Below are positions 21,628 to 41,320 of a DNA stretch of 64,000 bases, piece by piece. Under the pieces are notes generated by a model. It had not been told where the DNA came from. It searched no databases and was given only the letters and a program-made list of their open reading frames with translations. How positions within the stretch are numbered: position 1 is the first letter of the stretch; every line of letters begins with the position of its first letter. Made by a program: the position numbers and the translations under genes. The stretch covers positions 36,837 through 100,836 of the forward strand of contig CAJQLD010000021.1 in NCBI GenBank assembly GCA_905479095.1. The letters run 5' to 3'. This DNA is from an uncultured Flavobacteriaceae bacterium (GTDB lineage: Bacteria > Bacteroidota > Bacteroidia > Flavobacteriales > Flavobacteriaceae).

Positions 21628-21745
21628 ATCGTCCAAATACCCTATTTAAGTCGATAGCTTTTATTTATAGTGACAATTCAATAATCTGTATATCAATATT
21701 TTATAAAGATCATTTAAACTAAAAATTTAGGGGTGCATTAAAACA

Positions 21746-22846: not shown

Positions 22847-22919
22847 AGGTTTTGAGTTTCTATACAAAGTGAAATTACCTTTTTTTTTATAATATCTTAA
22901 TTTTCACATCAAAAATATT

Positions 22920-23001
22920 GATCCAAACTTCGGTATTGAATGGCTTCTAACTTGGCAACTCATCTAAAAATAAACTTCATTATAAGATAGTGAAAGCTCA
23001 C
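22920..23001 (-). pseudogene. Collapsed relic of comM/yifB
   Basis: 22920-22947 matches comM 38705-38732 at 27/28 nt (EAIQYRSLD); 22953-23001 matches comM 39297-39346 at 40/50 with a 1-nt deletion (GEISLSHNGVLFLDELP region). Confidence 0.85.
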
Positions 23002-23180
23002 TTTAGAGATGGCAATTCCCTGCACAGGCAAAAACGAACAAGATTACAGAGTGCATTCCTGCTAACTTTGCTTCATGAGTCGCATTCACAGATACACGCA
23101 TGATACATCCTTAGTAGCGAGCTCAAGTTGCGTATACAAAATGTTAAGTGTTTCATTTAACCATATAAAAAGACAAAAAA

Positions 23181-25244
23181 TTAATGTGTTTCGTTTTTTG
23201 ATTTCATAAATAGAGGGGTTGCACATAAATACCATTTTAACTTAAAACCAATTTCGCTAAAGTTGAAACCTGCAGCAGTTGCTGATGCAATATCACTATG
23301 CAAGCCAAAGAGATTAGCTGTAAACCTATTGGAGATATTGTAACCTAATTTACCCTGAAATCTAAATGTATTTTGCCGCTCTTGGTCTTCAACAAACTGT
23401 AATCCAGTTGCAAGGTTTAGATTGTAAAACCATTTTCCAGTTTGATTTTTCACAAGATCCACAAATACCTCAACAACATTAAATTTTTCTGGGCTAAAAT
23501 AAATAACCGGCACTTGATCTTTAAATGTTATGTATTGGTAATTTAAGCCTGTTTTAAGCAACGGTTTATCAAAAAGGTTATAATACACCGAAGTGAATAG
23601 TAAATGCTTCTGGTTGCTGTCATTTTGCCAAGAGTAATTGTATTGCGTATACCAACCTAAATTAAAATTAGAATTTACATTGTAATTTGCATATAAGGTG
23701 TTTTGCACAATTTCTCGGTTTAGTAAATCGGCATTAAAATCTTGCCATTCGCGTTTATAGCCAAGGTCTAAAGTTTGCAGTTTAAACGGTTTTGTTTTAA
23801 AAACGATATTTGTTAAAAACTGTGTGTAATTAGTTGTTTTTGCATTCACATCAGTCACACCAATATTTGTTTTAATAGCTATTTTTGGATGCAGTAAGTA
23901 GTTAAAACCAAATAACAAATTATTTGCTTTGGCTTTGTTAGTGGTGACTTTGTTTTTAGAATTTCTATAACTATACAAACCATTGACTTGTAACTTTGTA
24001 GATAATGGCACAGTGACGTTTGTTGTTTCGGTAAAAGCCTCATTATTTCCATTGTCAAAACTATAGGTCGTTTTTGTTTCAAAAAAAGGCGTAAACTGTT
24101 TGTCTAATATGTTTACAAAGTTTTCAGCATCTTTTTGGTTTTTAAAAATGGACAATGTTTTATAAACTGCTCGATAAGCGTCGTTGTACAAACCGAGCGC
24201 TTTTTGTGCATTGGCCTTCCCTAGATTTCCATCAAAAGAGATGCTGTCGTTTGTTAAAATGGTGTTGTAATCTTTAAGACTTTTTTTGAAATCTCCTTTA
24301 TAGGTATTTAAAGTGGCACGTAAGGCTAAAACCCAATTTTGGTTTGGCTTTGTGAGTATTAAATCCCTAATTAATGATCTAGCTGTTTTATACTTTTTAT
24401 TCCAAATTAAAGCTTGTATGTAACGTTCTGTTGTTTGTTGTGTTTGTGCTTCATTCATAGACGTTAATCCATCAAAAGCTTCTTTACTTATTTTAAGTGC
24501 ATCCTTTTCTTTTCTATTTAAATGCGAGACTAATGCCAAACCATTTAATGCTGTGATTTTTTGACCTGGTTGTTCTGCGATAAGATTATAGCACTCTTTT
24601 GCTTTTTCTAATTGATCTGAAATTAAATATAAATTAGCAAGATTCAGTAAGGTATCGATATCATTATTAAAGAGACGTAAATTTTCTTTTAACAAGTTTT
24701 CTGCTTGCGTATATTCTTGTTGCTGTTGTTTTTGGTAAGCATATCCTAAATACATGTATTTTTTAGAATTCAATGCATTTAAATTATTGGGCTTTACAAC
24801 TAATGCTTTATCAACATATATTAAGGCATTTTCGTATTCTTTTAAATTTGATAATGTGTTTGCATAACTTAAGAGTGCTGGAAAACTTTTAGGCTCTTCA
24901 TTTACTAATATTTTAAAATATTTCTTAGCTTCTTCAAACTTATCATTCCATAACAAAGATTCTCCATAATTCAATTTTACTTCAAAATCATCATTATAAT
25001 TTTCCAATAAATTTATAAAAATCGCAGTGGCTTTTTCAGGATTCCCGTTTAAACCAACAGCACGTCCAAAACACAAACGAGCCGTTTTATTTTGGGCATG
25101 ATCATTTAAGATATTTTGAAAAAATAATTCAGCGTTTTGATATTCTCCAGCTTCTAAATAAGCAAAACCTTTTTGCATATCTTGAGAGAACATAAATAGA
25201 GAAAACGTCGTGCAAAAAAGCAAGAGATAGGGATTGATTTTCAT
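23181..25244 (-). CDS. Secreted TPR protein with probable C-terminal outer-membrane beta-barrel
   Basis: Signal peptide MKINPYLLLFCTTFSLF from ATG 25244; multiple TPR-like helical repeats; last ~280 aa have an alternating aromatic/hydrophobic beta-strand pattern ending GFKLKWY. Confidence 0.7.
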   Translation of the reverse strand: MKINPYLLLFCTTFSLFMFSQDMQKGFAYLEAGEYQNAELFFQNILNDHAQNKTARLCFGRAVGLNGNPEKATAIFINLLENYNDDFEVKLNYGESLLWNDKFEEAKKYFKILVNEEPKSFPALLSYANTLSNLKEYENALIYVDKALVVKPNNLNALNSKKYMYLGYAYQKQQQQEYTQAENLLKENLRLFNNDIDTLLNLANLYLISDQLEKAKECYNLIAEQPGQKITALNGLALVSHLNRKEKDALKISKEAFDGLTSMNEAQTQQTTERYIQALIWNKKYKTARSLIRDLILTKPNQNWVLALRATLNTYKGDFKKSLKDYNTILTNDSISFDGNLGKANAQKALGLYNDAYRAVYKTLSIFKNQKDAENFVNILDKQFTPFFETKTTYSFDNGNNEAFTETTNVTVPLSTKLQVNGLYSYRNSKNKVTTNKAKANNLLFGFNYLLHPKIAIKTNIGVTDVNAKTTNYTQFLTNIVFKTKPFKLQTLDLGYKREWQDFNADLLNREIVQNTLYANYNVNSNFNLGWYTQYNYSWQNDSNQKHLLFTSVYYNLFDKPLLKTGLNYQYITFKDQVPVIYFSPEKFNVVEVFVDLVKNQTGKWFYNLNLATGLQFVEDQERQNTFRFQGKLGYNISNRFTANLFGLHSDIASATAAGFNFSEIGFKLKWYLCATPLFMKSKNETH

Positions 25245-25287
25245 TGGTAATTTTTGATAGTTCAAGTTAAACATTATAAGCGATTCA

Positions 25288-25317
25288 TTCATCTATAGAT
25301 AATGTCCTCTCATCGAA
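25288..25317 (+). promoter_or_regulatory. Candidate LytTR-type tandem box A
   Basis: TTCATCTAT-N12-CTCATCGAA, 21-bp period, in the divergent TPR/flippase promoter. Confidence 0.6.
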
Positions 25318-25499
25318 ATTAAATTGATTTCTAAAGATATCTGGGTAATATTTATACCTGAAATTAACCTAAATACAATTTTGGTTTATACGTTTTGAAG
25401 CACAATCCCCTATATCATTTTTAGCATAAAGAATAGTGATTGAATTTAGAAACACTACGAATGTATTAACCAAGGCTAATTTCTTAATCAAAATAAAAA

Positions 25500-26738
25500 A
25501 TGCAAATCATCTCATTTATACGTTCAAAAAAGATATCGGATGAACAATTATTTATGTTGAGCGTACTGGTTGTTAATGCAGGTAATTATATATACAATCT
25601 TATTCTTGGTCGAATTTTAGATCCAGGACAATTTGCAGATGCAGCGGTCTTAATTACTTTTTTATCTGTTCTATCCTTTGTCGCGATGACTTTTCAATTA
25701 GTAACTGCAAAATTTTCAGTCGTATTTGAAACTAATTTATTTATGATTTTTATTTCAAAGGTTTATAAGAATGCTCTTTTTGTCGGAATTAGTTTTGGAG
25801 GTATCATTATTATTTTTTCAAAACAATTACAACAAATATTAAATACTTCATCTTCAAATATGTTTACTGTTTTCGGAATTGGGATGCCATTATACTTTTT
25901 AATGAGTGTCAATAGAGGCGTTTTTCAAGGAAAAAAAGCATTCAAGTATTTATCAATTACCTATCAATCTGAAATGTTGAGCAGACTGGTCATCACATTA
26001 GGATTGCTACTCGCATTTAACATACAATCGTCACTCGTAATCGCTCTTGGAATTTTCTTCTCCTTTTGTTTTGGTTTAATCCCGTTTAACTTTAAAAGTT
26101 TAAGCTTTAAAACATCTTTAGGCATTGCCCAAAATCAATTAAAATTAGTGAGAAAATTTTTTATAATTACTGCCTTTTATGAATTAACTCAAATTATAAT
26201 TAACAACAGTGACATTCTTTTAGTGAAGCATTATTTTGAATCGTATGAAGCTGGGTTGTATGCCTCTTTGGCAATAATTGGTAGAATTGTATACTTTATA
26301 GCTTGGATGTTTGTGATGTTATTACTCCCTACCGTTGTTGAACTTAAAAAAGAGGGAAAAGCAACAGCTCCAGTTTTATTTAAATATGTTGGGTATATAA
26401 CTATTGTAGCAGCTGTAATTATTTTGAGTTATGCATTATTTCCAAAAACAGCAATTAGCTTATTATTTGGTGAGAGTTATTTAGCGATGGCTCCCTTACT
26501 TTGGAAATATGCTTTAGCAACTGGGTTATTCGCCATTTCAAACATTTTTGCTTATTACTATTTGTCATTAGATCGATTTATGCCTGTTGTGTTGTCTGGT
26601 ATTTTTGGAATGTTACAAATGGGGCTCATCATATTTTTTCATGATACTTTAGAACAAGTCGTTCACATTCAAATTATAGCAATGATGTTATTACTCGTTT
26701 TTCAAATTATTTATTTCGCTTTAGATTCTAAATCATAA
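25500..26738 (+). CDS. Oligosaccharide flippase (Wzx/MOP-like)
   Basis: About 12 TM segments; NYIYNLILGRILDP, NNSDILLVKHYF, AGLYASLAIIGRIV flippase-like motifs. Confidence 0.8.
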   Translation: MQIISFIRSKKISDEQLFMLSVLVVNAGNYIYNLILGRILDPGQFADAAVLITFLSVLSFVAMTFQLVTAKFSVVFETNLFMIFISKVYKNALFVGISFGGIIIIFSKQLQQILNTSSSNMFTVFGIGMPLYFLMSVNRGVFQGKKAFKYLSITYQSEMLSRLVITLGLLLAFNIQSSLVIALGIFFSFCFGLIPFNFKSLSFKTSLGIAQNQLKLVRKFFIITAFYELTQIIINNSDILLVKHYFESYEAGLYASLAIIGRIVYFIAWMFVMLLLPTVVELKKEGKATAPVLFKYVGYITIVAAVIILSYALFPKTAISLLFGESYLAMAPLLWKYALATGLFAISNIFAYYYLSLDRFMPVVLSGIFGMLQMGLIIFFHDTLEQVVHIQIIAMMLLLVFQIIYFALDSKS

Positions 26739-26792
26739 TTATCATGACGTTAAACCCACAATTCAATTGCTATTATAAATAGAAAAAAAAGC

Positions 26793-28010
26793 ATGAAACT
26801 AGCTATCGTAACAGCATTTCCGCCAAGTAAAGTCACATTAAATGAATATGCTTACCATTTAGTAAAACACTTCAGACTAAAAAAAGACATTTCAGAAATT
26901 ATTTTGTTAACGGATAAAACAAAAGGTAAAAAAGATATTTTATTTACTAAAAAAGGGTGTGGCATTACAATCAAAGAATGTTGGTCGTTTAATAGCTATG
27001 CTAACATTATTAATATCACAAAAGCAATTAATAAAACAAAACCAGACGCCGTATTATTTAACTTACAGTTCATGAAATTTGGGGATAAAAAAATAGCTGC
27101 TGCATTAGGGTTATTTTTACCTTTTGTCTGTAAGTTAAAAGGAATCCCAAACATTGTTTTACTGCACAACATATTAGAAGAAGTCGATTTAGAATCTGCT
27201 GGATTTACAACTAACAAATTTCTACAAAAAATATACGGTTTTATAGGGACGACATTAACAAAAATAATATTACTAGCAGATGTTGTTTCGGTCACCATTC
27301 AAAAATATGCTACGACTTTGGAAGAAAAGTATAGTGCTAAAAACGTGATTTTAATACCACATGGAACCTTTGAAGTATCTGACGAAAAACCAGATTTTAC
27401 GGTTCCTAAAGGACCTTTACAAATAATGACTTTTGGGAAATTTGGAACTTACAAAAAAGTAGAGTTATTAATTGAAGCCGTAGAGGTTGTAAGAGATTCT
27501 ACTGGATTAGATCTAGAAGTGGTGATCGCAGGCACCGATAATCCAAATGTAAAAGGGTACTTGGCAAAAGTACAACAAGAGTATAACCATGTACCCCAAA
27601 TCAGATTTACAGGATACGTGAAAGAGTCTGAGGTGCCTACTCTGTTTAAAGAAAGTGCTGTAGTTGTATTCCCATATACATCTACTACAGGAAGTTCTGG
27701 TGTATTACATCAGGCAGGAAGTTATGGCAAAGCTGTTGTAATGCCCTATTTAGGGGACTTAGCATTACTAGTAAAAGATGAAGGTTATCTAGGTGAGTTC
27801 TTTGAACCAAGATCAGTTGAAAGCTTAGCAAAAGCAATAGAAGCAATTGTAACTAATGACTACTACAGAAAAGATTTAGGAAAGGCTAATTATAAAGCTG
27901 CGACGGCATATCCCATGAGTAAAATTACAGACATGTATCTCAATGAGTTCAATTCAATTATAAACAACAAAAAGCAGAGAAAAATACAATCCATTACTGG
28001 CCGGAGATAA
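26793..28010 (+). CDS. GT4 family glycosyltransferase (GT-B)
   Basis: LIPHG, FGKFGTYKKVELLIEA, RFTGYV, VVFPYTSTTGSSGVLHQAGSYGKAVV. Confidence 0.85.
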   Translation: MKLAIVTAFPPSKVTLNEYAYHLVKHFRLKKDISEIILLTDKTKGKKDILFTKKGCGITIKECWSFNSYANIINITKAINKTKPDAVLFNLQFMKFGDKKIAAALGLFLPFVCKLKGIPNIVLLHNILEEVDLESAGFTTNKFLQKIYGFIGTTLTKIILLADVVSVTIQKYATTLEEKYSAKNVILIPHGTFEVSDEKPDFTVPKGPLQIMTFGKFGTYKKVELLIEAVEVVRDSTGLDLEVVIAGTDNPNVKGYLAKVQQEYNHVPQIRFTGYVKESEVPTLFKESAVVVFPYTSTTGSSGVLHQAGSYGKAVVMPYLGDLALLVKDEGYLGEFFEPRSVESLAKAIEAIVTNDYYRKDLGKANYKAATAYPMSKITDMYLNEFNSIINNKKQRKIQSITGRR

Positions 28011-29511
28011 ACTTAAATGCCGCTTTTTTTGTTCCATTGTCATCAATAAATCCATAATATTTTTGAGCATTTTTACGCCAAGGTAGCCCTCCTACAACTT
28101 CATTTGGAATGTTTACAAAGTCATATAAGGTCCAAGACATAAATTGTATATCATTTTCAGAGATGATCTTTTGAGCTTTTTCATAATAATCGGCTTGATC
28201 ATTATTAGAATTTCCAAATGGGTTCCATAAACCACTATAAGAGGACATTCCAAATTCACCCATAACTAAAGGCTTGTTTGGAGCTTTTGCTTTAAGAGAT
28301 TTTATGGAGGCGGCAAGGTTATCTAAATCTTCATAATAATGAAAAGAGATAAAGTCAACTTTATCTTTTAAAATTGCTGCGCTTTGTATGTCGGACCATC
28401 CAATAGTGACTGCATGAGCGGAATCTATAGATTTAACCAAATCAATCAAAGCATTTAACCATGCGATAACATTCAATTCACCTCTTGAATCAAAGTCTAA
28501 GTTAGGCTCATTTTTAATATCCCAAGCAATAATTGCTTCATGATCTTTTAGTTCAGATACAATCGTTTTTGCATGCTGCATATTCAAGGTCCAATTTAAG
28601 ACTGAATAATCACCATAAAAGTCAAAAAGAGTGACCACAACTTTTAAATCATTTTCCTCTGCTGCATCTAATGTTTGCTTTAATTTATCTAATTTTTCTG
28701 TAATAACATTTGCTTTACCAAAATCATCATATTGCACAAAAATACGAACCGTAGTTAATCCGCTATCTCTAATAATCTTAAAGTCGTTTGAAATCGTGTT
28801 TTTTGAAAAAGCACCTCCAAACATATCCCATGGTGTATCTTTTGGATAATAATTAATCCCTCTTATGTTTAAATTGCTCGATGCAACTTTAGCGTTTTCT
28901 TTCTGATAATTTTCTGTGGATACTTTTACCATATGCCTAATTCTCCAAAAACCGTCTTCCAATAAAAGTATGATTTTGTAAGTGGATTTTTCTGTGGTTT
29001 CAAAAATTAATTTTTCATCTTTAAATACACGTTTGTACTCTAAAACATCAGTATCTGTAAGTATTGCTAAGTGTCCATCTTCGCTATAAAAATTTAAAGT
29101 TGGATGGTGCTCTAAAGTTGTAGATTCAATGGTGATTCTATTTTTTATATTTAAATCAATAAAATCAAACCTATTTTCACGAGCGTTATCCGTAAAGTAG
29201 TCCTTAATGACGTCTTTGGTATTCGTCTTATAAGCAACCAGGCTTACATACCATGCATCTAAATAATCATTTTCTAAAGTGTTTAGCGTTACTTCGTCCA
29301 TTGATCTTCCTTCATTATTTAAGGGAGTCCAATCAACTTTAGGGATGTATTGCTCTATTTTTTTTAATTCTGTATGAAGCATTTTACTTCTATCTGCTCC
29401 TGTATTTAGATATACAAACACTGCACTAATCCCAGATATAATAATTACAATAACTAGGAGATATGAGCCTAATAAAAGACTACGTACTATATTTTTATTT
29501 AAACCTACCAT
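27994..29511 (-). CDS. Membrane-anchored clan GH-A glycoside hydrolase (GH5/GH2-like TIM barrel)
   Basis: N-terminal TM anchor; RGINYYP, WDIKNEP acid/base Glu, ISFHYY, VMGEFG nucleophile Glu. Confidence 0.8.
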   Translation of the reverse strand: MVGLNKNIVRSLLLGSYLLVIVIIISGISAVFVYLNTGADRSKMLHTELKKIEQYIPKVDWTPLNNEGRSMDEVTLNTLENDYLDAWYVSLVAYKTNTKDVIKDYFTDNARENRFDFIDLNIKNRITIESTTLEHHPTLNFYSEDGHLAILTDTDVLEYKRVFKDEKLIFETTEKSTYKIILLLEDGFWRIRHMVKVSTENYQKENAKVASSNLNIRGINYYPKDTPWDMFGGAFSKNTISNDFKIIRDSGLTTVRIFVQYDDFGKANVITEKLDKLKQTLDAAEENDLKVVVTLFDFYGDYSVLNWTLNMQHAKTIVSELKDHEAIIAWDIKNEPNLDFDSRGELNVIAWLNALIDLVKSIDSAHAVTIGWSDIQSAAILKDKVDFISFHYYEDLDNLAASIKSLKAKAPNKPLVMGEFGMSSYSGLWNPFGNSNNDQADYYEKAQKIISENDIQFMSWTLYDFVNIPNEVVGGLPWRKNAQKYYGFIDDNGTKKAAFKFISGQ

Positions 29512-30722: not shown

Positions 30723-33700
30723 TAATTTAGGTTTCCAATGTAAGAGTTCATTTCAATTTTTATATAACTAAAGTCTGGATGCTTGATTTTTTGTAATTCA
30801 GAACTTGAATGATTTTCGATTCTATTCGGTATTATTTTATTTGAAATATGGGCATTAGGCAACCCATTTACAAAAACATTCTCCATAGACTCACTAATGA
30901 TTTTTATTTTACCATTCTTCAAAATTTGATATTCAAAACCTTTTTTTCGCTGTTGTCTGATCCCCTCTTTTAGAAATAAATGATCGACCCAAAGCATTGT
31001 TTTGTTTTGGTCGTAATAAGAGATTAAAAGTTGAGGCACTGTAATCTCCTGAATGCCGCTATTAAATAAATTTCCGCTAATAATGTCTCCATTTATATCT
31101 AATTGACTTAAGACACTCTTTTTATATAAATCAGATCCAGAAACATTTCCCGCTACTTGTAAATTGAATTTTGTAGGATGTTCTTTAAAATCAACAGGCG
31201 TAAATTCATCTGGATTAAAGGTGTCGGGTATAGAATCTTGCGTTTTTGACCATGCAATACCTTCAAAATTAATTCTAAAAGCACTTGACTCTTTAGGAAA
31301 TAATTTATGTTTAACATGGTATTTAGCGTTATACGTTGCAAGCTCTTTATTGTGATCATCATACAATGTGCCTTTAAGCACAATATCAGCAGGTACATTA
31401 TCTATATTTTGAATTTCTCCAATGATGGCAAAATGAGTCCCGTATTTTACAAGTCTTGCTGATAACACTTCTAAAACAGGTTGTTTTAAAATATCTTCAT
31501 GATGCGTTTGTTCTGTTGTTATACGTCTTCTTCCTTGATTAAAATAACTAGTCGTATTATTTGAAAAAAGTTGATCGGGTGGTAAATCAGTGTCTAAGCC
31601 TTCTGATTTTATATACCATTTCTTATGATATTTAGATACTGACTTATAATCAATTTTTCGTATTTTTTCGAGAGGTGTAATCCAATCAGCAATTACTTTG
31701 ACGGTTGCCAAACTATCATTTCTACTCGTAATAATTGTTTCAATGGCATCCAGTTTTGCATAACTATTTAGCAAACCTCCTGAGAGGGAGGTCTCAAGCA
31801 TATATTGTGAAATTGAAATATTACTTGTGGGATCTATCAAACTATATGCTATTTCAAACTCTTTGAAATCTAACGCGTCATAATAGGCAATTATAGCGTT
31901 TTCTGGACTTCGTTGTGAGTCATTTTTTAAATAGAATTGATAAAGATTATAAAAGACAATTACAACTAAAAAAATTGACCAAAAGTGTGTGATTTTCAGG
32001 ATTGATTTTGAGAACTTCGAATAACGATTAGAAAATTTTAAAAATTCAGGTGTTTTTTTATGTCTTGTTTTTAAAGTATTTACCAATAACATTTGTATGT
32101 TTAAAATAAACGCTATTAATACCGTTAAAAATGGCACTATTCCCCATACAATTTTTTGCCATTTTGCGACATCATCCTTGGGTAAAATAGATGAAATTGG
32201 TGATACATTCAATCGCTCCCAAACCATAATTCCATTTTCTAATTTCTGCAATCGTTGCCAACCACAGAAATAGAGTATCGGATCATAAAACTTATCATTA
32301 GAGAAAATATATTTAAGATTATATTTATCTGGAGTTGTCAAAAACTGCTGTAATGAACCAATTCCTGCGACCCCTTTAAATTTTGAGTTTTCTAAACGCT
32401 CTATAGGTCTAGTGGTTAGTTCTGGTAATCTTCGCGCCGAATGATAATTTCCGTCGACTGTCATTGCATTAGTTTGCGCACTTAACCATGCCATTTGATC
32501 ACCAAAACCTAAAGTTAAAAACCGCCATTTATCGTGATCATCTTGATTTAAGAAGTTCACAATAGGGAGCATCTCAATTTTTTGCGGCTGGAATGGCCTA
32601 AAGTAACCAAGACTCATGGTGAAAACAGTCATAAAGATAAATAGTCCAGCAAGGATTCCTCCAATAATACGATGGTAAATTGCTCCAAAACGCACTCGAA
32701 TCAAGGCTTTTAAATCCCCTTCTACAAAACGATACGCAAATTCACCTAGTAGGGGTAACGACATAATAGAAGCCCAAAGCGTAAATCTATCTAATGTAAG
32801 AATGTTAAATGCTGTTTCACCTAAAACCATTCTTGGAATTGGGGTCGTTCCGCCAGTTCCTAAAATCGTTAGTAGTGTTATCGATAAACCGAAAAAGAGA
32901 TAACGTTTACTATAATATCTATAAAAAATATATGGCAATAGGATGAGTAGAATTCCCCAAGGGATTAAAAAGAACATTAGACCAGAAGACGTAATTTCTA
33001 AAAAATTATCTCTTGATCCGTGCGGAATGGGTACTTGAGTTATTGGATTATTTTTTGAATTAATCCAATATGGAAAAATACAGCCAATAATAATAACTAG
33101 TGAAGCCATTCCAAAACTAATAATCCTGTTAAAGAGTTTAAAGAAACTATTTAGAAAAATTTTAAACGAAACTTCTTTTAGTGTGTCTACTTGATCTCGA
33201 GACACATCTAAAATAACCATTCCTATTAATGGAAAGACAAAAAATACCATTCCGAATATAGGGGTCACATGATGAGAAGTAACAGTCACAGCAATTAATG
33301 ACAAGGAAGTTGCTAAATATCTTGATCTACCTGTTTTAAGCCATAAATAAATTTCTGGTAACGCATGCATTAAAATAGAAATCCCAACAATACTTGGCAA
33401 TTGACCAAATACGTGAAGCGTTTCAACAAATGATGACGAAAATACTGCTAAAATAGAGGCATAACCCGCAACCGTTTTATTTGATGTAATTAATAACGAA
33501 AACCGATACACTCCAGTTATAAAAAGGACTATTGAAATTAGAGCGACCGAGAACAATCCAAACTTTAACCCCCCCATCATCGACAGTAGTCCAATAGATT
33601 GATGAACTAAAGGAGGATAGCTCATAACCGTAAAGCCTGTATACCACTCATAATTCCAAGGTTCAAACCAACTATTGGCATAATGGTCCGAAAAAAATAA

Positions 33701-33811
33701 ATGGATCAAAGCATCATAGGTACTTTCTAAAGTGAAAAACATGGAAGTACCATGAAACACAACCCCAATTAGTAGTGCAACAATCAAATATTTATTGGTG
33801 GTTTCTTTCAT
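30722..33811 (-). CDS. Large polytopic membrane protein, GT-C-like N-terminus with extracytoplasmic C-terminal domains
   Basis: A dozen or more TM segments in the first ~630 aa; YDALIH...WNYEWYTGFTVMSYPPLVHQ first loop resembles PTPS-related/YfhO-like GT-C proteins. Confidence 0.6.
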   Translation of the reverse strand: MKETTNKYLIVALLIGVVFHGTSMFFTLESTYDALIHLFFSDHYANSWFEPWNYEWYTGFTVMSYPPLVHQSIGLLSMMGGLKFGLFSVALISIVLFITGVYRFSLLITSNKTVAGYASILAVFSSSFVETLHVFGQLPSIVGISILMHALPEIYLWLKTGRSRYLATSLSLIAVTVTSHHVTPIFGMVFFVFPLIGMVILDVSRDQVDTLKEVSFKIFLNSFFKLFNRIISFGMASLVIIIGCIFPYWINSKNNPITQVPIPHGSRDNFLEITSSGLMFFLIPWGILLILLPYIFYRYYSKRYLFFGLSITLLTILGTGGTTPIPRMVLGETAFNILTLDRFTLWASIMSLPLLGEFAYRFVEGDLKALIRVRFGAIYHRIIGGILAGLFIFMTVFTMSLGYFRPFQPQKIEMLPIVNFLNQDDHDKWRFLTLGFGDQMAWLSAQTNAMTVDGNYHSARRLPELTTRPIERLENSKFKGVAGIGSLQQFLTTPDKYNLKYIFSNDKFYDPILYFCGWQRLQKLENGIMVWERLNVSPISSILPKDDVAKWQKIVWGIVPFLTVLIAFILNIQMLLVNTLKTRHKKTPEFLKFSNRYSKFSKSILKITHFWSIFLVVIVFYNLYQFYLKNDSQRSPENAIIAYYDALDFKEFEIAYSLIDPTSNISISQYMLETSLSGGLLNSYAKLDAIETIITSRNDSLATVKVIADWITPLEKIRKIDYKSVSKYHKKWYIKSEGLDTDLPPDQLFSNNTTSYFNQGRRRITTEQTHHEDILKQPVLEVLSARLVKYGTHFAIIGEIQNIDNVPADIVLKGTLYDDHNKELATYNAKYHVKHKLFPKESSAFRINFEGIAWSKTQDSIPDTFNPDEFTPVDFKEHPTKFNLQVAGNVSGSDLYKKSVLSQLDINGDIISGNLFNSGIQEITVPQLLISYYDQNKTMLWVDHLFLKEGIRQQRKKGFEYQILKNGKIKIISESMENVFVNGLPNAHISNKIIPNRIENHSSSELQKIKHPDFSYIKIEMNSYIGNLN

Positions 33812-33873
33812 CGATAATCTTCACAGTATCAGCAATGTAAATATAAATTATTCTAATAGCATTTCAATTGCTT

Positions 33874-33903
33874 GTCATCTAAAGCAATTGACCATTCGTC
33901 TAC
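33874..33903 (+). promoter_or_regulatory. Candidate LytTR-type tandem box B
   Basis: GTCATCTAA-N12-TTCGTCTAC, 21-bp period, in the divergent GT-C/REC-GT2 promoter. Confidence 0.6.
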
Positions 33904-33986
33904 ACATAATAATTAATTAATCTAAAGAACAATTTTAGACCCCTCTTGTATAGTATTTTAGAAGTCTCTAAATAAAATATCATACT

Positions 33987-35201
33987 TTGAAAATATTAGC
34001 GATAGATGATCAAAAACTAGTGTTGCTTCCAATAGAAAAGCGGTTAAATGAACTTGAATATAAAGTCAAAACTGAAACAAACTCTATTAAAGCAATAGGC
34101 ATTTATCATTCGTTTAAACCCGATTTGGTAATCGTTGATATTAACATGCCTAAAATTTCAGGATTAGAAATTGTGAAATATATTAGAAATTCCGAAAATC
34201 CGAAAACACCTATATTAATTTTATCTGGCGATACAAATGATAACGTCATAATTGAAGGGTTTGATTTAGGAATTAATGATTACATGAAAAAACCAATAAG
34301 CTTAAATGAAATATGTGTTCGAATAAAAAAATTAATTGGAATTCCAAAACAAGTAAATACCGTGAAAACGATCAGTCAAGTAATCATCCAACAACGCTGC
34401 GTAGGAGTCGTAATTCCCTGTTATAACGAAGAGCAACGTTTGTTAAGTAAAAAGTTTACTAATTATATTGATAAAAACTCTGGCTATCATCTATGTTTTG
34501 TAAATGATGGTAGTAAAGACAAAACTTTAGAAGTCCTTAAGAAATTACAAAAAGGCAGAGAAGAGTTTATAACGATTTATGATTGCAAAAAAAATGGTGG
34601 AAAAGCCGAAGCTGTTCGTTTGGGAATGCTCTACATGGCTAAAAAAGAAGATATCGATTATATAGGTTTCCTAGATGCCGATTTATCGACCAATCTAACC
34701 GATTTTGATGATCTAGTAAAAACAATAGAACATTCTGATTTCAAAATAGTGAGCGGGTCTAGAATTACACGAATGGGAGCAAATATCACAAAAGAGTCCG
34801 CTAGAACCGTTATAAGTTTTACAATTAATTTTATAATTAGAAAAATTTTATCCATGGATTTTAAAGACACACAATGTGGTGCGAAAATATTTCATAAGGA
34901 TATTATCTCAATCGTTTTTAGAGATAAATTTATAACAAAGTGGATTTTTGATGTTGAAATATTTAAAAGAATGTCACAATATTATGGTCTAAAAAAAGCC
35001 AAAACAATGCTTTGTGAACAACCGTTAAAAAAATGGATACATGCTGATGGCTCAAAATTATCTTTAAAAGACTCGTTTAGAATTATAAGTGACTTAGCAC
35101 TAATTGCTTGGGTTTATAGATCAAAAAAAATAAAAAATAAAGCTTTAGCAGAAGCTTTATATACTGACCAAACAGGATCCTACTCCCCTACGGATTATTA
35201 G
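33987..35201 (+). CDS. Receiver domain-GT2 glycosyltransferase fusion
   Basis: TTG start; REC motifs IDD, VIVD51INMP, ILS, KKP; GT2 motifs VVIPCYNEE, FVNDGSKD, NGGKAEAV, FLDADL, DTQCGAK (polyprenol-phosphate sugar synthase-like). Confidence 0.9.
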   Translation: MKILAIDDQKLVLLPIEKRLNELEYKVKTETNSIKAIGIYHSFKPDLVIVDINMPKISGLEIVKYIRNSENPKTPILILSGDTNDNVIIEGFDLGINDYMKKPISLNEICVRIKKLIGIPKQVNTVKTISQVIIQQRCVGVVIPCYNEEQRLLSKKFTNYIDKNSGYHLCFVNDGSKDKTLEVLKKLQKGREEFITIYDCKKNGGKAEAVRLGMLYMAKKEDIDYIGFLDADLSTNLTDFDDLVKTIEHSDFKIVSGSRITRMGANITKESARTVISFTINFIIRKILSMDFKDTQCGAKIFHKDIISIVFRDKFITKWIFDVEIFKRMSQYYGLKKAKTMLCEQPLKKWIHADGSKLSLKDSFRIISDLALIAWVYRSKKIKNKALAEALYTDQTGSYSPTDY

Positions 35202-35247
35202 TACCATTTGAATACTGGATTAAACTATAAATAAATACAGTTAAGTT

Positions 35248-35266
35248 TCAAGCTTTAACAGCTTGA
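35248..35266. terminator. Hairpin between convergent REC-GT2 and LytTR genes
   Basis: TCAAGCT-ttaac-AGCTTGA 7-bp stem. Confidence 0.55.
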
Positions 35267-35277
35267 GAGAACGTATC

Positions 35278-35991
35278 TTATAATAAATTAAGCAGCTTCA
35301 TTAGCTGAGGTCTGTTGGAGCGACTTACGGGAATTACATCTCTTTTTATCAACACACTATTGTCTTCAATATCAATGATTTTTTTGATATTTATAATATA
35401 AGAGCGATGAATTTTTAAAAACAAATGGTCTGGAAGTTTATCTTCTATTTTTTTTAAAGTAGAATGTACCATATAGTTTTTGTTCTCTGTTTTTACATGA
35501 ATATAATCCCCTTTTGCTTCAATGAGGTATATACTAGGAATATCAATTTTAATAAGCCTTCTGTCAATATTAATATACAAATCGTCTGCAGAAGTCCTTT
35601 CTGTTTTTTTTGATGAATCATAAGAATCAACCGATGAATTCTGTTTGTCTGTTGCTTTTTGTAGTGCCTTTTGAAAACGCTCAGGAGCTATTGGTTTCAC
35701 TAAGTAATCTAAAATACAATCGTATTCAAAAGCTTGTATAGCAAAATTTGAATCTGAAGTCGTCAATATTATTTTTGGAGGATTTTTTAATGTTTCAATA
35801 AAATCAAACCCTGTGAAATCTGGCATGTGAATATCTAAGAAAATTAAATCAACCGTATGTTGATTTAAATATTTAATGGCTTGAATTGCATTTGGAAACT
35901 CTTCAATAACATTAAGATTTTCAACTTTAGAACATAACTGTCCAATAATAGCTCTTGCAGTAACCTCATCATCAATAATAATACAATTCAT
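35278..35991 (-). CDS. LytTR family DNA-binding response regulator
   Basis: REC (IIDDE, IFLDIHMP, DYLVKP) plus LytTR (IYLIEAKGDY, FLKIHRSYIIN, IPVSRS). Confidence 0.95.
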   Translation of the reverse strand: MNCIIIDDEVTARAIIGQLCSKVENLNVIEEFPNAIQAIKYLNQHTVDLIFLDIHMPDFTGFDFIETLKNPPKIILTTSDSNFAIQAFEYDCILDYLVKPIAPERFQKALQKATDKQNSSVDSYDSSKKTERTSADDLYINIDRRLIKIDIPSIYLIEAKGDYIHVKTENKNYMVHSTLKKIEDKLPDHLFLKIHRSYIINIKKIIDIEDNSVLIKRDVIPVSRSNRPQLMKLLNLL

Positions 35992-36000
35992 AAATACTAA

Positions 36001-36318
36001 CTATAGTTGTTGTAAATAATTTGTTATGTTAATTAATATAGATTTGAATTCTTGATTAAGGCTTGTATTTCCTTTTAATAAATCGTTTTCAAAAGCTGAA
36101 GCAATTTCATAACTTTTATCAAGACCCAATATACTAATTTTATGCTTAAGTTTATGCACATTATCTGCAGTCAACTTAAAGTTTTTAGCTTTAAAGTTTT
36201 TTAAATATTCTTCTTTCTCTAAAGGAAACTCCATTTTAATTATATTAATTATCTTTTTCTCAAAGGCCGTATCTCCTCCTGACATATTATATATATAAGA
36301 TAAGTTTGGTGTTTCCAT
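36001..36318 (-). CDS. Stand-alone Hpt histidine phosphotransfer protein
   Basis: 105 aa helical protein with VHKLKHKISILG Hpt motif. Confidence 0.85.
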   Translation of the reverse strand: METPNLSYIYNMSGGDTAFEKKIINIIKMEFPLEKEEYLKNFKAKNFKLTADNVHKLKHKISILGLDKSYEIASAFENDLLKGNTSLNQEFKSILINITNYLQQL

Positions 36319-36320
36319 AT

Positions 36321-37535
36321 TTATTTTTTTAACGTAAAATGGAATGTAGTTCCTTTTCCATAATCAGATTCTATCCATATATTTCCATTATAAAGATCTA
36401 TAATTTTTTTGACAATTGAAAGTCCTATTCCTGTAGAATCTTTATGATCATTTAGTGAATGGAAAATTTTGAAAATTTTATCATGGTATTTTTTTTCTAT
36501 TCCAACGCCGTTATCCTTAATTGAAAATTGATAAAACGATTTTTTTTCAGAAACGTCAATTTCTATTAAACCGTTTTTTTTATTATTAAATTTAATCGCA
36601 TTACCAATTAAGTTTTGAAACAATTGCTGAAATTTTGTTCGTTCACCAAAGACAACTGGCAATTTATTCTTAACATTAATTTTAATATGACTTGGAATAA
36701 AAATAATTTTTTTCAAGTCTTCAATAACTATATTTAAATCAACATTTAGTTTTTTAGATTCGTCCAAACTAACACTAGAATACAATAATACATCCGAAAT
36801 CAACAGCTCCATCTTTTCTAAAGTGGATTCGATATGACCAAAGTTTTGAAGACTGTTTTTATCAAATTTTCCTATATTATCTTCTTTTAGCCAACTTACT
36901 AAGGCGTAAATACTACTTAGCGGTGATTTTAAATCATGGGATACAATGTGTGCATATTCTTGAAGTTCATCATTACTCTTTCCAAGTTTCAAAAGTAACT
37001 TTTCTTTTTGGAGTTCAAGGTTTTTAATTTCAGTAATATCCCTAACAATTCCTTGTGCAGCTATGGCTTTATGGTTTTCATCATAAATGATACTTGCATT
37101 AATATGAACTAATTTTTGATCATTTGATTTTGTATTTATTTTAACTTGAAAATTTGTGATCGATCCATTATTAATTAATTTACTGTAACTTTTTTTGACT
37201 TTTTCAACCTCTGAAACATCGACGAGAGTAAAAAGATTAATATTTTCTTGATTGTTGTCATAGCCAAGCAAACTGGTTGCAGGTTCATTCATTTTTATAA
37301 CATTGCCCCTAAGATCCATAACAACATATGCATCTACTATATTTTCAAATACACCTCTCAGTTCAGATGATTTTTCAGCAATTAATTTCTCTAATTTAAA
37401 ATTAGATTTTTTTAGTTTTTGGGTAAGGTCATAGAATTCGGTAGATTTTCCTTCTAAAATTTTTTCAGCAGCTTTTCTCGCCCCTTTCTCACGTTTTAAA
37501 GCTCTTAATAAGATGCCTTCTAGTTGTTGATTCAT
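36321..37535 (-). CDS. Soluble PAS-domain sensor histidine kinase
   Basis: N-terminal coiled coil (REKGARKAAEKILE), PAS, H-box SHDLKSPL, N-box NLIGNAIKF, KDNGVGI, GIGLSIV, GKGTTF; no TM segment. Confidence 0.93.
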   Translation of the reverse strand: MNQQLEGILLRALKREKGARKAAEKILEGKSTEFYDLTQKLKKSNFKLEKLIAEKSSELRGVFENIVDAYVVMDLRGNVIKMNEPATSLLGYDNNQENINLFTLVDVSEVEKVKKSYSKLINNGSITNFQVKINTKSNDQKLVHINASIIYDENHKAIAAQGIVRDITEIKNLELQKEKLLLKLGKSNDELQEYAHIVSHDLKSPLSSIYALVSWLKEDNIGKFDKNSLQNFGHIESTLEKMELLISDVLLYSSVSLDESKKLNVDLNIVIEDLKKIIFIPSHIKINVKNKLPVVFGERTKFQQLFQNLIGNAIKFNNKKNGLIEIDVSEKKSFYQFSIKDNGVGIEKKYHDKIFKIFHSLNDHKDSTGIGLSIVKKIIDLYNGNIWIESDYGKGTTFHFTLKK

Positions 37536-38074
37536 TTATTCTTTGTGATGCTAAATTTGACTTCAGTTCCATCCTCTTTGATTTTTTCTAAATCAATGAC
37601 TGCTGTAGAATTAAAATACTCAAAGGTTTTATTCATCAGACCTAAGCCAAAATGATGCATAGCCCTACTAGACTTGTAAATCATTATTAATGAATTTTCT
37701 GTTTTTTCAATGACCTCAAATGTTGGTAATTCCGCATCTGGGTAAATTTTTCTAACCTCAACATGAATATGGTTTTCAATAGATGAAATCATTTCTATAG
37801 GGTCTTTATAAATTGCTAAAAGTCCAGGATAACTACTTTCAATTACACTAAAAAAATGCTCCGCATACACAAGTAAAAGGGCGTCTATAGAAATTTTTGT
37901 ATGCGCACTTAGATGCTGAAGTAATTGTAACATTTCAGAAAATTCATAGGTGCCAACAGAAGTATAGATGCCTTCAGACTCTAGTTTTGAAGCACTGATA
38001 ATTTTATCAACAACTTCCAATCCAAATTTAGTTTCTACAAGCTCTAAAAATTCAGTAAGTACGATTCCTTTCAT
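37532..38074 (-). CDS. H-NOX (heme NO/O2-binding) sensor
   Basis: MKGIV N-terminus, YTSVGTY, proximal His104 in HIHVEVRKIYP, Y133-x-S-x-R137 heme motif. Confidence 0.93.
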   Translation of the reverse strand: MKGIVLTEFLELVETKFGLEVVDKIISASKLESEGIYTSVGTYEFSEMLQLLQHLSAHTKISIDALLLVYAEHFFSVIESSYPGLLAIYKDPIEMISSIENHIHVEVRKIYPDAELPTFEVIEKTENSLIMIYKSSRAMHHFGLGLMNKTFEYFNSTAVIDLEKIKEDGTEVKFSITKNK

Positions 38075-38483
38075 TTGTGTTTTTTAATTCATTTATACTC
38101 CAATACGCTAATAGTTTTTCAATTTTAGATACATAATCTTCATATTTTAGAGGTTTGAGTACGTAGCCTGCAATCCCAATTTCATAACAAGCAATCAAAT
38201 CTTTTTGATTATTGGAGGTCGTTAGTATTATTGTTGGGATATATTTTAATGTATCATCATTTTTTAAAATAGATAAAAACTCGATCCCATTTATTTTGGG
38301 CATGTTTAAGTCTAATAAAATAATATTCGGGAGATTGGTTTTTTGTGCTAATAGTTTTAAATCATCTTCGACATTATTAGCGCCAATGATTTCATGATTT
38401 AGTTTTAATTTTGAGATGGTTCTATTAAACTTCATAACTTCAATAGCATCATCTTCAATAAGTAGGATTTTAAGGGTTTTCAT
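38052..38483 (-). CDS. Single-domain response regulator (Rcp1-like)
   Basis: LLIEDD, ILLDLNMPKING, ILTTS, YVLKP. Confidence 0.93.
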   Translation of the reverse strand: MKTLKILLIEDDAIEVMKFNRTISKLKLNHEIIGANNVEDDLKLLAQKTNLPNIILLDLNMPKINGIEFLSILKNDDTLKYIPTIILTTSNNQKDLIACYEIGIAGYVLKPLKYEDYVSKIEKLLAYWSINELKNTNERNRTY

Positions 38484-38563
38484 TTCAATAAAAAATTAAA
38501 TAATTTCTAAAATAAATATATCCTACGGGTGGTCCTATATATTTTGTTTGATGGTTGGGAAGT

Positions 38564-38594
38564 GTCGATGAATAGCTAAAATATGGCGATGAAT
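38564..38594 (-). promoter_or_regulatory. Candidate LytTR-type tandem box C
   Basis: Minus strand ATTCATCGCC-N11-ATTCATCGAC (9/10 identical, 21-bp period), 80 bp upstream of the signalling operon. Confidence 0.65.
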
Positions 38595-38684
38595 TGTAAT
38601 GCTGATTTTGGCGGTTTATTTGAAACTCGATTTATAAGTCTATTTCTTAGTTGTCTACTTAGTTGCTCAATTTTAAGAAGCACC

Positions 38685-40223
38685 TTATCCCAACCACCCA
38701 TCACGATCCAAACTTCTGTATTGAATGGCTTCACTAATATGGGCACTTTCTATAGACGAAGCGCCTTCTAAATCGGCAATGGTTCTGGAAACTTTTAAAA
38801 TACGATCATAGGCTCGCGCTGACAAACCGAGGCGTTCCATAGCGGTTTTTAAAAGCTGCATTGAATTCGCATCTAATTTACAATAAGCACGTATTTGCTT
38901 CACATTCATTTGTGCGTTGTAATGTACACTACTCGATTTTTCAAAACGCTGTGTTTGTAATTCACGTGCTTTAGTCACCCGTTTTCTTATATCCACGGAG
39001 GACTCCCCTTTGCGCTCGTCTGACAGTTTTTCAAACGGGACCGGTGTCACCTCTATATGGATATCAATACGATCCAATAATGGTCCCGAAATTTTACCCA
39101 AATACCGTTGCATTTCCCCCGCAGATGACATCGTAGGCGCATTTGGGTCATTAAAATACCCACTAGGACTTGGGTTCATACTGGCCACCAACATAAAACT
39201 ACTTGGATAGGTGACTGTAAACTTGGCACGTGAAATGGTCACCTCTCGATCTTCTAAGGGCTGACGCATGACTTCTAATACCTCCCGTTTAAATTCTGGT
39301 AATTCATCTAAAAACAACACCCCATTATGAGACAGTGAAATTTCACCGGGTTGCGGGTAACTTCCCCCACCCACGAGGGCTACATTTGAAATCGTATGAT
39401 GGGGCGACCGAAATGGACGTTGTGCAATTAATCCTTTTTGAGCACCAACCCGCCCTACTACAGAATGTATTTTAGTCGTTTCCAAGGCTTCGTGCAAGGT
39501 CATCGGAGGCAGAATTGATGGCAAGCGCTTGGCGAGCATGGTTTTTCCCGCGCCCGGTGGCCCAATTAATATAATGTTATGTCCACCAGCAGCAGCAATT
39601 TCCATACAGCGTTTGATGCTCTCCTGCCCTTTGACATCAGAAAAATCAAATTCAGGATGCTCTAAGTTTTTTTGAAACTCGGCATGGGTATCTACTATGG
39701 TTTGCTCTAAGGCTTTGTTTTTATCAAAATAATTAATCACTTCCGAAATGTGTTCCACACCATACACTTTCAACCCGTCGACAATGGCAGCTTCTTTTGC
39801 ATTTTCTTTAGGTAGAATAAATCCTTCAAAACCATCCTCTAGAGCTTTAATCGCAATTGGCAACGCCCCTTTGATGGGCTGTACTGATCCATCTAAGGAG
39901 AGTTCTCCCATAATGACATACCGATCAATGTTGACCTCTTTTATTTGATTGGAGGCCGTTAAGATCCCCATTGCCAACGACAAGTCATAGGCAGCCCCTT
40001 CTTTGCGCATATCCGCAGGCGACATATTGATGATGAGTTTTTTACCGGGAATTTTATAACCATTATTTTGAAGCGCAGCCGCAATTCGGAAGTTACTTTC
40101 TTTAATGGCGTTATCTGGTAATCCCACCAAATGGTAGCCGATGCCTTTATCGACATTGACTTCGATTGTGATGGTATGTGCTTCCACGCCAAAGACGGCG
40201 CTTCCATAGACTTTTTTGAGCAT
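38685..40223 (-). CDS. comM: YifB/ComM Mg-chelatase-like AAA+ ATPase
   Basis: Lon-like N-domain (GLPDNAIKES, YDLSLAMG), Walker A GPPGAGKT, PFRSPHH, LFLDELPEF, GPLLDRID, YRSLD. Confidence 0.95.
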   Translation of the reverse strand: MLKKVYGSAVFGVEAHTITIEVNVDKGIGYHLVGLPDNAIKESNFRIAAALQNNGYKIPGKKLIINMSPADMRKEGAAYDLSLAMGILTASNQIKEVNIDRYVIMGELSLDGSVQPIKGALPIAIKALEDGFEGFILPKENAKEAAIVDGLKVYGVEHISEVINYFDKNKALEQTIVDTHAEFQKNLEHPEFDFSDVKGQESIKRCMEIAAAGGHNIILIGPPGAGKTMLAKRLPSILPPMTLHEALETTKIHSVVGRVGAQKGLIAQRPFRSPHHTISNVALVGGGSYPQPGEISLSHNGVLFLDELPEFKREVLEVMRQPLEDREVTISRAKFTVTYPSSFMLVASMNPSPSGYFNDPNAPTMSSAGEMQRYLGKISGPLLDRIDIHIEVTPVPFEKLSDERKGESSVDIRKRVTKARELQTQRFEKSSSVHYNAQMNVKQIRAYCKLDANSMQLLKTAMERLGLSARAYDRILKVSRTIADLEGASSIESAHISEAIQYRSLDRDGWLG

Positions 40224-40278
40224 TTTAGTAAATTTGAGAATTTAAAACTACTAAATATTAAGGAATAATAAAATTATT

Positions 40279-41265: not shown

Positions 41266-41320
41266 AAATAACATTTACTTGAATTACAATAATCCTAAAT
41301 TAAGAATAAAAATTAGATTG

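Follow-up and report, generated by a model that had tools for sequence, protein, structure and literature searches.

The locus described here raises the question of how a block of twelve genes came to lie between an intact copy and a decayed copy of the gene comM in the genome of an uncultured member of the Flavobacteriaceae. The window analysed is a stretch of 64 kb (contig C21:36837-100836) from the assembly of this genome (G000; 2.23 Mb, 102 contigs, 90% complete), and all coordinates are window positions unless a contig or locus is named. On the minus strand the order, read from right to left, is an IS1595-family insertion sequence, comM, the twelve island genes, a spacer of 313 bp (22868-23180) and a DUF2891 gene, the inserted block itself (15,683 bp; 23002-38684) reaching from just past the comM stop codon to the comM relic. 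That the block was horizontally acquired from another bacterial lineage, as an island at an insertion hotspot, is a conclusion that the sequence comparisons given below support well.

The local gene order of related genomes was compared for the presence of the block. The backbone order of the genus is panB-rluX-aldh-[DUF2891]-comM-aquaporin-TetR; the 3' end of comM lies 63 bp from DUF2891 in two congeners (G003 and G013) and comM adjoins the aldehyde dehydrogenase gene (aldh) in ten others (G011, G004, G014, G019, G012, G007, G002, G009, G001, and G005); one count of the congeners with either adjacency gave 13. The DUF2891 gene (PF11199; 21746-22867, minus strand) is the native downstream neighbor of comM, adjoining its 3' end in G003, G013, and also in G021, and because G021 belongs to another genus this adjacency is old. 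Homology between G000 and the comM-DUF2891 spacer of G013 and G003 is interrupted from just past the comM stop codon as far as the relic. The 15.7-kb block was absent at the comM locus from every congener that was readable there, being found between comM and DUF2891 in G000 only; the insertion that G015 has at the comM site carries other cargo. The relatives sampled are only distantly related (comM about 83% identical at the nucleotide level), and in the nearest relative at this locus (G006; 97% nucleotide identity in DUF2891) the contig ends inside DUF2891, leaving the locus unreadable. The only congener with the same gene cluster is G011, a complete genome, where the cluster lies at another locus inside an insertion of 21.8 kb. 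At that insertion site G000 has 56 bp (contig C30), and the reciprocal empty sites in G000 and G011 therefore mean two independent acquisitions. The G011 insertion (L035:9290-20000 plus L036:1-11131; G011:C1 at about 929.3-951.1 kb) also holds a TonB-dependent receptor gene and two unknown ORFs, and no recombinase was found in it and no repeats at its boundaries.

The base composition of the block sets it apart from its host. The GC content of the island is 30.7% as compared to 36.5% for the genome (standard deviation 1.5% for windows of 15.7 kb), the lowest value among 354 windows of the same size, and its tetranucleotide distance falls in the top 1.1% of such windows. In the eight genomes of other genera that carry the closest homologs both the cluster and its flanks have about 30-33% GC, and in G011 the cluster has 32.1% GC as compared to 36.3% in its flanks. 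The base composition of the island thus matches the low-GC genera of the family and not the host. An earlier interpretation made from the DNA letters alone (hereafter the sequence-only reading) had set about 27% GC in the flippase gene against about 45% in a core gene; the shift that these figures suggested is real, and both figures are local extremes.

The protein of 1029 amino acids (aa) encoded in the block was used as the marker for the cluster and was found in 94 of 401 genomes of the family. The G000 protein is 85% identical to those of two metagenome-assembled genomes of uncultured Flavobacteriaceae, 84% to that of Patiriisocius sp. Uisw_017, 81% to those of Formosa, Algibacter, Winogradskyella, and Olleya, and 73% to that of the congener G011. 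In the phylogenetic tree of this protein G000 is placed in a well-supported clade of other genera, apart from G011, and forcing the two into one clade costs 41.7 log-likelihood units (approximately unbiased [AU] test, p = 0.0385), a marginal rejection in which G011 is long-branched. The sequence-only reading had proposed that the block is an island acquired at comM, to be checked by empty sites in relatives and by GC and tetranucleotide analysis; empty sites were found in G003, G013, the ten aldh-type congeners, and G021, the composition proved foreign, and the contrary picture of a cluster present here in all relatives, with a congruent tree and no compositional shift, is not what the data gave.

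The same 12 genes were present at 47-88% amino acid identity in the 11 other genomes whose cluster was examined. In other genera the cluster is a conserved module in which the H-NOX block is followed by the genes from the TPR gene through to the REC-GT2 gene. The G000 version is compact (15.7 kb as compared to 16-24 kb elsewhere), its glycan block is inverted and its gene order is unique; it lacks the second kinase gene and the 4-7 kb that separate the LytTR regulator gene from the TPR gene, and the total missing was put at 5-8 kb. In the three genomes with the closest marker proteins the cluster has the standard gene order and does not lie beside comM.

The two ends of the block are related through comM. 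Intact comM (38685-40223, minus strand; 512 aa) forms the upstream border of the island. It encodes full-length ChlI, Mg_chelatase, and Mg_chelatase_C domains according to Pfam, its product is 91-95% identical to those of congeners, and both its 5' and its 3' part fall inside the genus clade in phylogenetic trees. A direct repeat of 28 bp, 27 positions of which are identical, occurs in the same orientation within this gene (38705-38732, minus strand; codons 498-506) and beyond the block (22920-22947, minus strand; comM nucleotides [nt] 1492-1519); 100 dinucleotide-preserving shuffles gave no repeat match at ≤3 mismatches. A search of the whole 64 kb using nhmmer and a comM DNA profile built from 21 relatives returned exactly two significant matches besides the intact gene. 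One of these is the downstream repeat copy (22948-22920, matching comM nt 1491-1519; E-value 3.6e-4) and the other is a second piece (22953-23001, minus strand) that matches comM nt 878-927 in the Walker-B region (E-value 2.6e-3), is about 82% identical to comM (about 18% substitutions), and contains one frameshift. Both pieces are collinear with comM, in the orientation of comM, and 5 nt apart. Past them, the sequence can be aligned to the spacer between comM and DUF2891 in G013 and G003, except for a gap of 18 nt that corresponds to the last six comM codons, which are gone. Given this alignment and the collinearity of the pieces, the relic is a 5'-truncated copy of comM without nt 928-1490 and without the last codons. 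Upstream of comM nt 878 there was no comM similarity, either by nhmmer or by local alignment of positions 23002-23120, which scored no better than shuffled sequences; some weak matches to comM aa 202-230 and 244-255 at the protein level, found in the same region upstream of the relic, likewise had shuffle-level scores and no nhmmer counterpart and were dismissed as chance. The downstream 28-mer is identical at all 28 positions to comM of the congener G011, including the genus-type GGATC end. An assignment of the relic to a donor or to the resident gene from the Walker-B piece failed, as this piece matches both kinds at 40 of 49 positions; the 28-mer is of genus type.

The block is thus flanked by direct repeats derived from its target gene, the 28-bp repeat plus the second collinear comM piece, and the bracketing by intact comM and a comM relic that the sequence-only reading had described holds. 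The 28-bp repeat is the remainder of a duplication that once spanned at least comM nt 878-1539 and is no minimal att core. With a duplication of this extent the insertion involved the middle of comM and not only its 3' end, so that the earlier placement of the island at the comM 3' end is correct as to its position beside the gene and too narrow as to the reach of the insertion.

Recombinase genes were searched for by a Pfam scan of all 12 island ORFs and by a genome-wide six-frame search using PF00589 and PF00239. Neither a tyrosine nor a serine recombinase was detected in the island by these searches, in agreement with the earlier observation that no recombinase ORF lies inside. The two tyrosine recombinases of G000 lie elsewhere, an Xer-sized one on contig C21, some 20 kb beyond the window, and another on contig C45. 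The Pfam scan gave no transposase in the island either, the only one nearby being that of the IS1595 element outside it.

The recurrence of such arrangements in the family was surveyed by searching 401 genomes with comM aa 283-512. A second C-terminal match was present in about 35 genomes (at least two matches each; 364 genomes were given as the denominator in one count), and about 40 genomes were inspected. An intact comM followed by cargo and a truncated comM copy is found in about 10% of family genomes. In 15 of the genomes inspected (G290, G352, G280, G242, G015, G356, G250, G173, G431, G384, G191, G049, G052, G024, and G037) the intact gene, the cargo, and the 5'-truncated copy lie in this order on the same contig; these are referred to as type 2, and the cases in which an element splits comM as type 1. 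Cargo of type 2 islands includes a polysaccharide-utilization locus of 38.9 kb, secreted proteins, a sulfatase, an OLD-family nuclease, and a two-component pair. Genome-wide six-frame searches detected no tyrosine or serine recombinase in the islands of G290, G352, G015, and G280, and among the cargo ORFs of the other type 2 islands that were scanned with Pfam there was none, three islands (G191, G049, and G052) having been located by coordinates only. The survey together with the literature, in which comM-type Mg-chelatase genes are the commonest target of large serine recombinases (LSR) with 12.4% of predicted site-specific integrases (PMC10083194) and comM is inactivated by mobile elements in many Gram-negative species (PMC12378983), bears out the earlier statement that comM is a recurrent insertion target.

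The truncated copies of type 2 start preferentially at two places, aa 268-279 and aa 454-490. The first group begins at nt 812-836 (G290, G352, G280, and G242), within about 30 nt of an LSR crossover, and the second near nt 1407-1429 or 1447-1450. Type 1 elements split comM in the same two regions, G013, G005, and G117 at one site and G069, G086, and G143 near aa 454-490. The G013 element (L032:9736-15091, G013:C1; 5.3 kb) encodes an LSR of 543 aa, 50 nt from the junction, and has its crossover at about nt 842, the element-side junction sequences forming an imperfect palindrome; the same element occurs in G005 (L028), and comM of G117 is split at the same place. The G013 element also holds a tyrosine-recombinase fragment. 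No homolog of the LSR or of the tyrosine recombinase of G013 was detected in G000 or in the G290 island. In G069 comM is split near aa 463-480 (nt ~1400-1450) and an LSR of 575 aa (L198:2929-4656, minus strand; G069:C17) lies 25 bp from the 3' fragment; this element (L198 and L197 = G069:C50) is larger and has phage-like genes (DUF5131, GP88) on its other side.

G290 (L090-L092, G290:C2:394000-443999) has three comM 3' copies in a row, in the order intact comM, the 38.9-kb polysaccharide-utilization locus, a copy from aa 275 (a repeat of 717 bp, 98.5% identical), an ORF of 243 aa and a copy from aa 475, which looks like at least two successive insertions. XRE-type helix-turn-helix (HTH) genes that are 47% identical abut the truncated comM in two genera (G290, L092:2902-3381, minus strand; G352, L093:3584-4006, plus strand), and about 13 nt are conserved at the junction of HTH gene and comM copy, which may mark the conserved end of one element family; this gene has no counterpart in G000. 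In G210 (L204, G210:C87:16000-21000) intact comM is followed after 96 nt by decayed comM nt 859-1122 without cargo in between, and this fragment could be left over from an insertion that was aborted or from an island since lost. A gene of the IS200-like Y1 (HUH) transposase family lies directly downstream of intact comM in G352 (L093:7620-8189, minus strand) and G431 (L099:1906-2556, minus strand), and in the latter no other gene separates comM from its 90-nt 3' copy. A comM fragment (aa 135-284) that ends at the LSR site is found 1 Mb from the intact gene in Patiriisocius sp. Uisw_017 (G437, C1 at about 1.68 Mb; L208:7730-8179), and a second full-length comM, 53% identical to the query, in G163 (L205:10010-11494, G163:C39). 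Within the genus of G000, comM of G001 (L043:6942-7370, G001:C4) is internally deleted, aa 1-50 being joined to aa 415-512, and comM of G003 carries several stop codons, so that the gene appears to be often inactivated in this genus.

Because the boundaries of the copies cluster near LSR sites in a gene favored by LSRs, a site-specific origin is the best single reading of the G000 island. We lean towards the view that the island arrived on or with an integrative element targeting comM, whose recombination module was then lost. The insertion would have pushed the resident 3' part of comM (from about nt 840-878 on) downstream, and an incoming comM 3' part or a whole comM borne by the element would have kept or restored one intact gene. 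The recombination module would then have been lost, possibly through a RecA-mediated deletion between the resident 5' half and the element-borne comM, and two later deletions may have reduced the displaced copy to 82 nt, which include the 28-bp repeat. In G143 a second comM 5' copy lies 1.3 kb from a serine-recombinase fragment, which gives weak support to the existence of elements that carry their own comM. A generalization of this route, according to which LSR elements targeting comM often end as permanent cargo islands, their own comM or part of it healing the target and the recombinase module being deleted, with G000 as one instance, is put forward tentatively and is in our opinion rather doubtful. 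If true, this route would account for the conversion of elements that interrupt a recombination gene into stable islands free of recombinases. Scars of this kind would then be present in about 10% of family genomes and would be easy to search for by their signature, an intact target gene with a truncated copy downstream.

Several observations weigh against arrival on a comM-targeting element. The 5' limit of the relic at nt 878 is about 36 nt from the LSR crossover at nt ~842, and elsewhere in the family single copies start at aa 197, 292, 330, 338, 372, 394, 427, and 441. Neither an att-like inverted repeat nor a recombinase or element-end sequence was detected at either boundary of the G000 island, the noncoding sequence at both boundaries has no match among 200 retrieved loci or in the surroundings compared from other genomes, and the 90%-complete assembly contains no serine recombinase. 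A donor arrangement was not found either, the cluster lying next to comM in none of the 12 other genomes examined. Furthermore, the intact comM is genus-like along its whole length in the tree and both copies are of genus type; its 3' part carries more unique substitutions (8.9 as compared to 3.8 per 100 nt), with the best breakpoint at nt 1090 and a permutation p of 0.09. A mosaic comM with a 3' end from a low-GC donor genus was rejected on the grounds of this p-value and of the position of the 3' part in the genus clade. Of the Campbell-type entry suggested by the sequence-only reading the acquired island beside a comM duplication stands; whether the insertion was site-specific or homologous is something we infer, the mosaic analysis giving p = 0.09.

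The genus-type character of both comM copies would suit homologous recombination alone, in which a circular DNA that combined the cluster with a 3' segment of comM was integrated into the resident comM by RecA, with no site-specific recombinase anywhere in the lineage; the circle could, for instance, have been released by a donor in which the arrangement comM-island-comM' already existed. The 717-bp repeats of G290, being 98.5% identical, could support such cycles, no recombinase was seen in any of the 15 type 2 islands (four of them searched genome-wide), and the best breakpoint lies in the duplicated part of comM, where a crossover of this kind would fit. That breakpoint is however not significant, no donor with the cluster beside comM was found, and homology alone does not predict that the 5' ends of the fragments concentrate near the two sites split by LSRs. 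We therefore regard this explanation as fairly unlikely.

The irregular boundary at nt 878 would be accounted for by homology-facilitated illegitimate recombination during DNA uptake, in which a linear molecule anchored in comM was joined at its far end near nt 878, the stretch in between being replaced and the resident 3' part being left as the relic. Such an event needs no recombinase, and the single-case fragment starts elsewhere in the family are what it could produce. Its donor would need a genus-type comM immediately followed by the cluster, an arrangement absent from the genomes examined, and the clustering of the boundaries is left unexplained, which makes this route improbable.

Whether the island still moves was addressed with marine metagenomes. 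Sampled words of the stretch were present at a share of 1.00 in twenty runs from 2012-2022, and contigs from runs X1, X4, X12, and X16 (2014-2022) matched it with 0-1 differences and bridged both junctions without a mismatch (e.g., 22577-29273 and 32370-38796). Word depth was equal in the island and in its flanks (about 193 in X1, about 72 in X4, and about 16 in both X12 and X16), and the excision joint expected from the repeat (22947 to 38705) did not occur in the contigs of the four runs, a form of data that drops rare variants. A joint of 21593 to 22920 in X1 represents a relative without DUF2891. The join in the contig is thus not an assembly artefact, and the island appears to be fixed and no longer moving. 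The sequence-only reading had left both fates open and had proposed to look for a dip in metagenome coverage; depth is flat, and of the two fates the flat depth, the junction-bridging contigs, and the lack of an excision joint in the contigs of the four metagenomes favor fixation over looping out. Mobility, whether by looping out at the 28-bp repeat or with the help of a recombinase supplied in trans, has in its favor that direct repeats in the same orientation exist and that LSR elements occur in congeners. The repeat is however a poor substrate, 28 bp long with one mismatch, and with the relic deleted across both LSR sites and no serine recombinase in the 90%-complete assembly the prerequisites for mobilization in trans are lacking, so that continued mobility is very improbable. 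The suggestion that the cluster is ancestral at this site and was repeatedly lost in relatives, or that the contig is chimeric, can draw on the distance of the sampled relatives (comM about 83% identical) and the contig break of G006 inside DUF2891, but it is hardly credible given the comM relic on the far side of the block, the DUF2891-comM adjacency in another genus, the strong compositional shift, the incongruent tree, and the unitigs from four independent runs that bridge both junctions.

The gene content of the island corresponds to a predicted H-NOX sensor, a histidine kinase, and three receiver proteins that are linked to genes for glycan synthesis and export. Downstream of comM the first island gene encodes a stand-alone receiver (REC) protein (38052-38483, minus strand; PF00072) that is 70-83% identical to its counterpart at the start of this cluster in other genera. 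It is followed on the minus strand by genes for the H-NOX haem/NO-binding sensor (37532-38074; PF07700, E-value 7e-38), a PAS histidine kinase (36321-37535; HisKA, HATPase_c, and PAS domains), a protein of 105 aa that is possibly Hpt-like (36001-36318; a weak Hpt match with an E-value of 0.008, under the curated cut-off) and conserved in the cluster of other genomes, and a REC-LytTR response regulator (35278-35991; Pfam). A REC domain fused to a GT2 glycosyltransferase (33987-35201, plus strand; Pfam) is encoded next, and beyond it the minus strand carries the genes for the 1029-aa marker protein, which had no match in the Pfam scan (30722-33811), for a protein of 405 aa with a weak Ig-like match (Invasin_D3) under the curated Pfam cut-off (29505-30722), and for a glycoside hydrolase-like protein (27994-29511; Glyco_hydro_2_C and Glyco_hydro_cc). 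Two genes on the plus strand encode a GT1-family (GT4-type) glycosyltransferase (26793-28010; Pfam) and a polysaccharide flippase-like membrane protein (25500-26738; Polysacc_synt_3), and the last island gene encodes a TPR protein of 703 aa (23181-25292, minus strand; Pfam).

On the other side of comM, between this gene and the aquaporin gene, lies the IS1595-family insertion sequence (40277-41275, minus strand; DDE_Tnp_IS1595), which G015 and G001 lack in their comM-aquaporin spacers. It is present in one copy in the assembly and has its own imperfect terminal inverted repeats of ~20 bp. A role of this element in the formation of the island was rejected, since as a single copy outside the island with its own inverted repeats it is a bystander. 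Its metagenome depth is above that of its flanks in runs X1 and X4.

The closest known parallels are elements that use LSRs to integrate into comM and other Mg-chelatase-family genes (Durrant et al., 2022; PMC10083194), to which phage WO sr1WO of Wolbachia, with an LSR integrating into a comM/Mg-chelatase-family gene, can be added (PMC9203015). The target gene is the same, and truncated copies beside islands often start near the sites split by LSRs. Unlike these elements, the G000 island has no LSR, its comM is intact (512 aa) and not split, and its duplication was hundreds of bp long, whereas only a few bp are common to attL and attR of LSR elements. AbaR islands are Tn7-like transposons that have their own transposition genes, produce short target duplications, and disrupt comM. 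From these the G000 island differs in its lack of transposition genes, its intact comM, and its long partial gene duplication. The likeness is that in both cases cargo islands occur repeatedly at comM and have become fixed in a population, AbaR-type resistance islands being recurrent in comM of Acinetobacter baumannii (PMC11441513, PMC7508600). A further parallel is given by integrase-less remnants of integrative elements between att repeats, such as the CIME-type elements of streptococci and islands stacked at tRNA or tmRNA genes (e.g., the ssrA islands of Dehalococcoides; PMC3146451). There too the cargo has the complete target gene on one side and a displaced part of its 3' end on the other, and nested copies (the three comM 3' copies of G290) and the lack of a recombinase inside are shared features. 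The present case differs in that the target is protein-coding, that the duplicated part reaches up to 717 bp, and that the downstream repeat of G000 has decayed beyond likely use.

Among the H-NOX/two-component/glycan clusters of Flavobacteriaceae the G000 copy is the only one found beside comM. It shows a complete sensing-and-glycan module moving between genera of abundant marine Flavobacteriaceae, a module that one genus acquired at two separate loci in independent events and that became fixed. Compared with the known systems, the G000 island is a further member of the cargo islands found at comM; as a feature it is ordinary, and the comparative pattern is useful. The comM hotspot, familiar from Proteobacteria and as a target of LSRs, is extended by it to the Flavobacteriaceae in a form that leaves comM intact.

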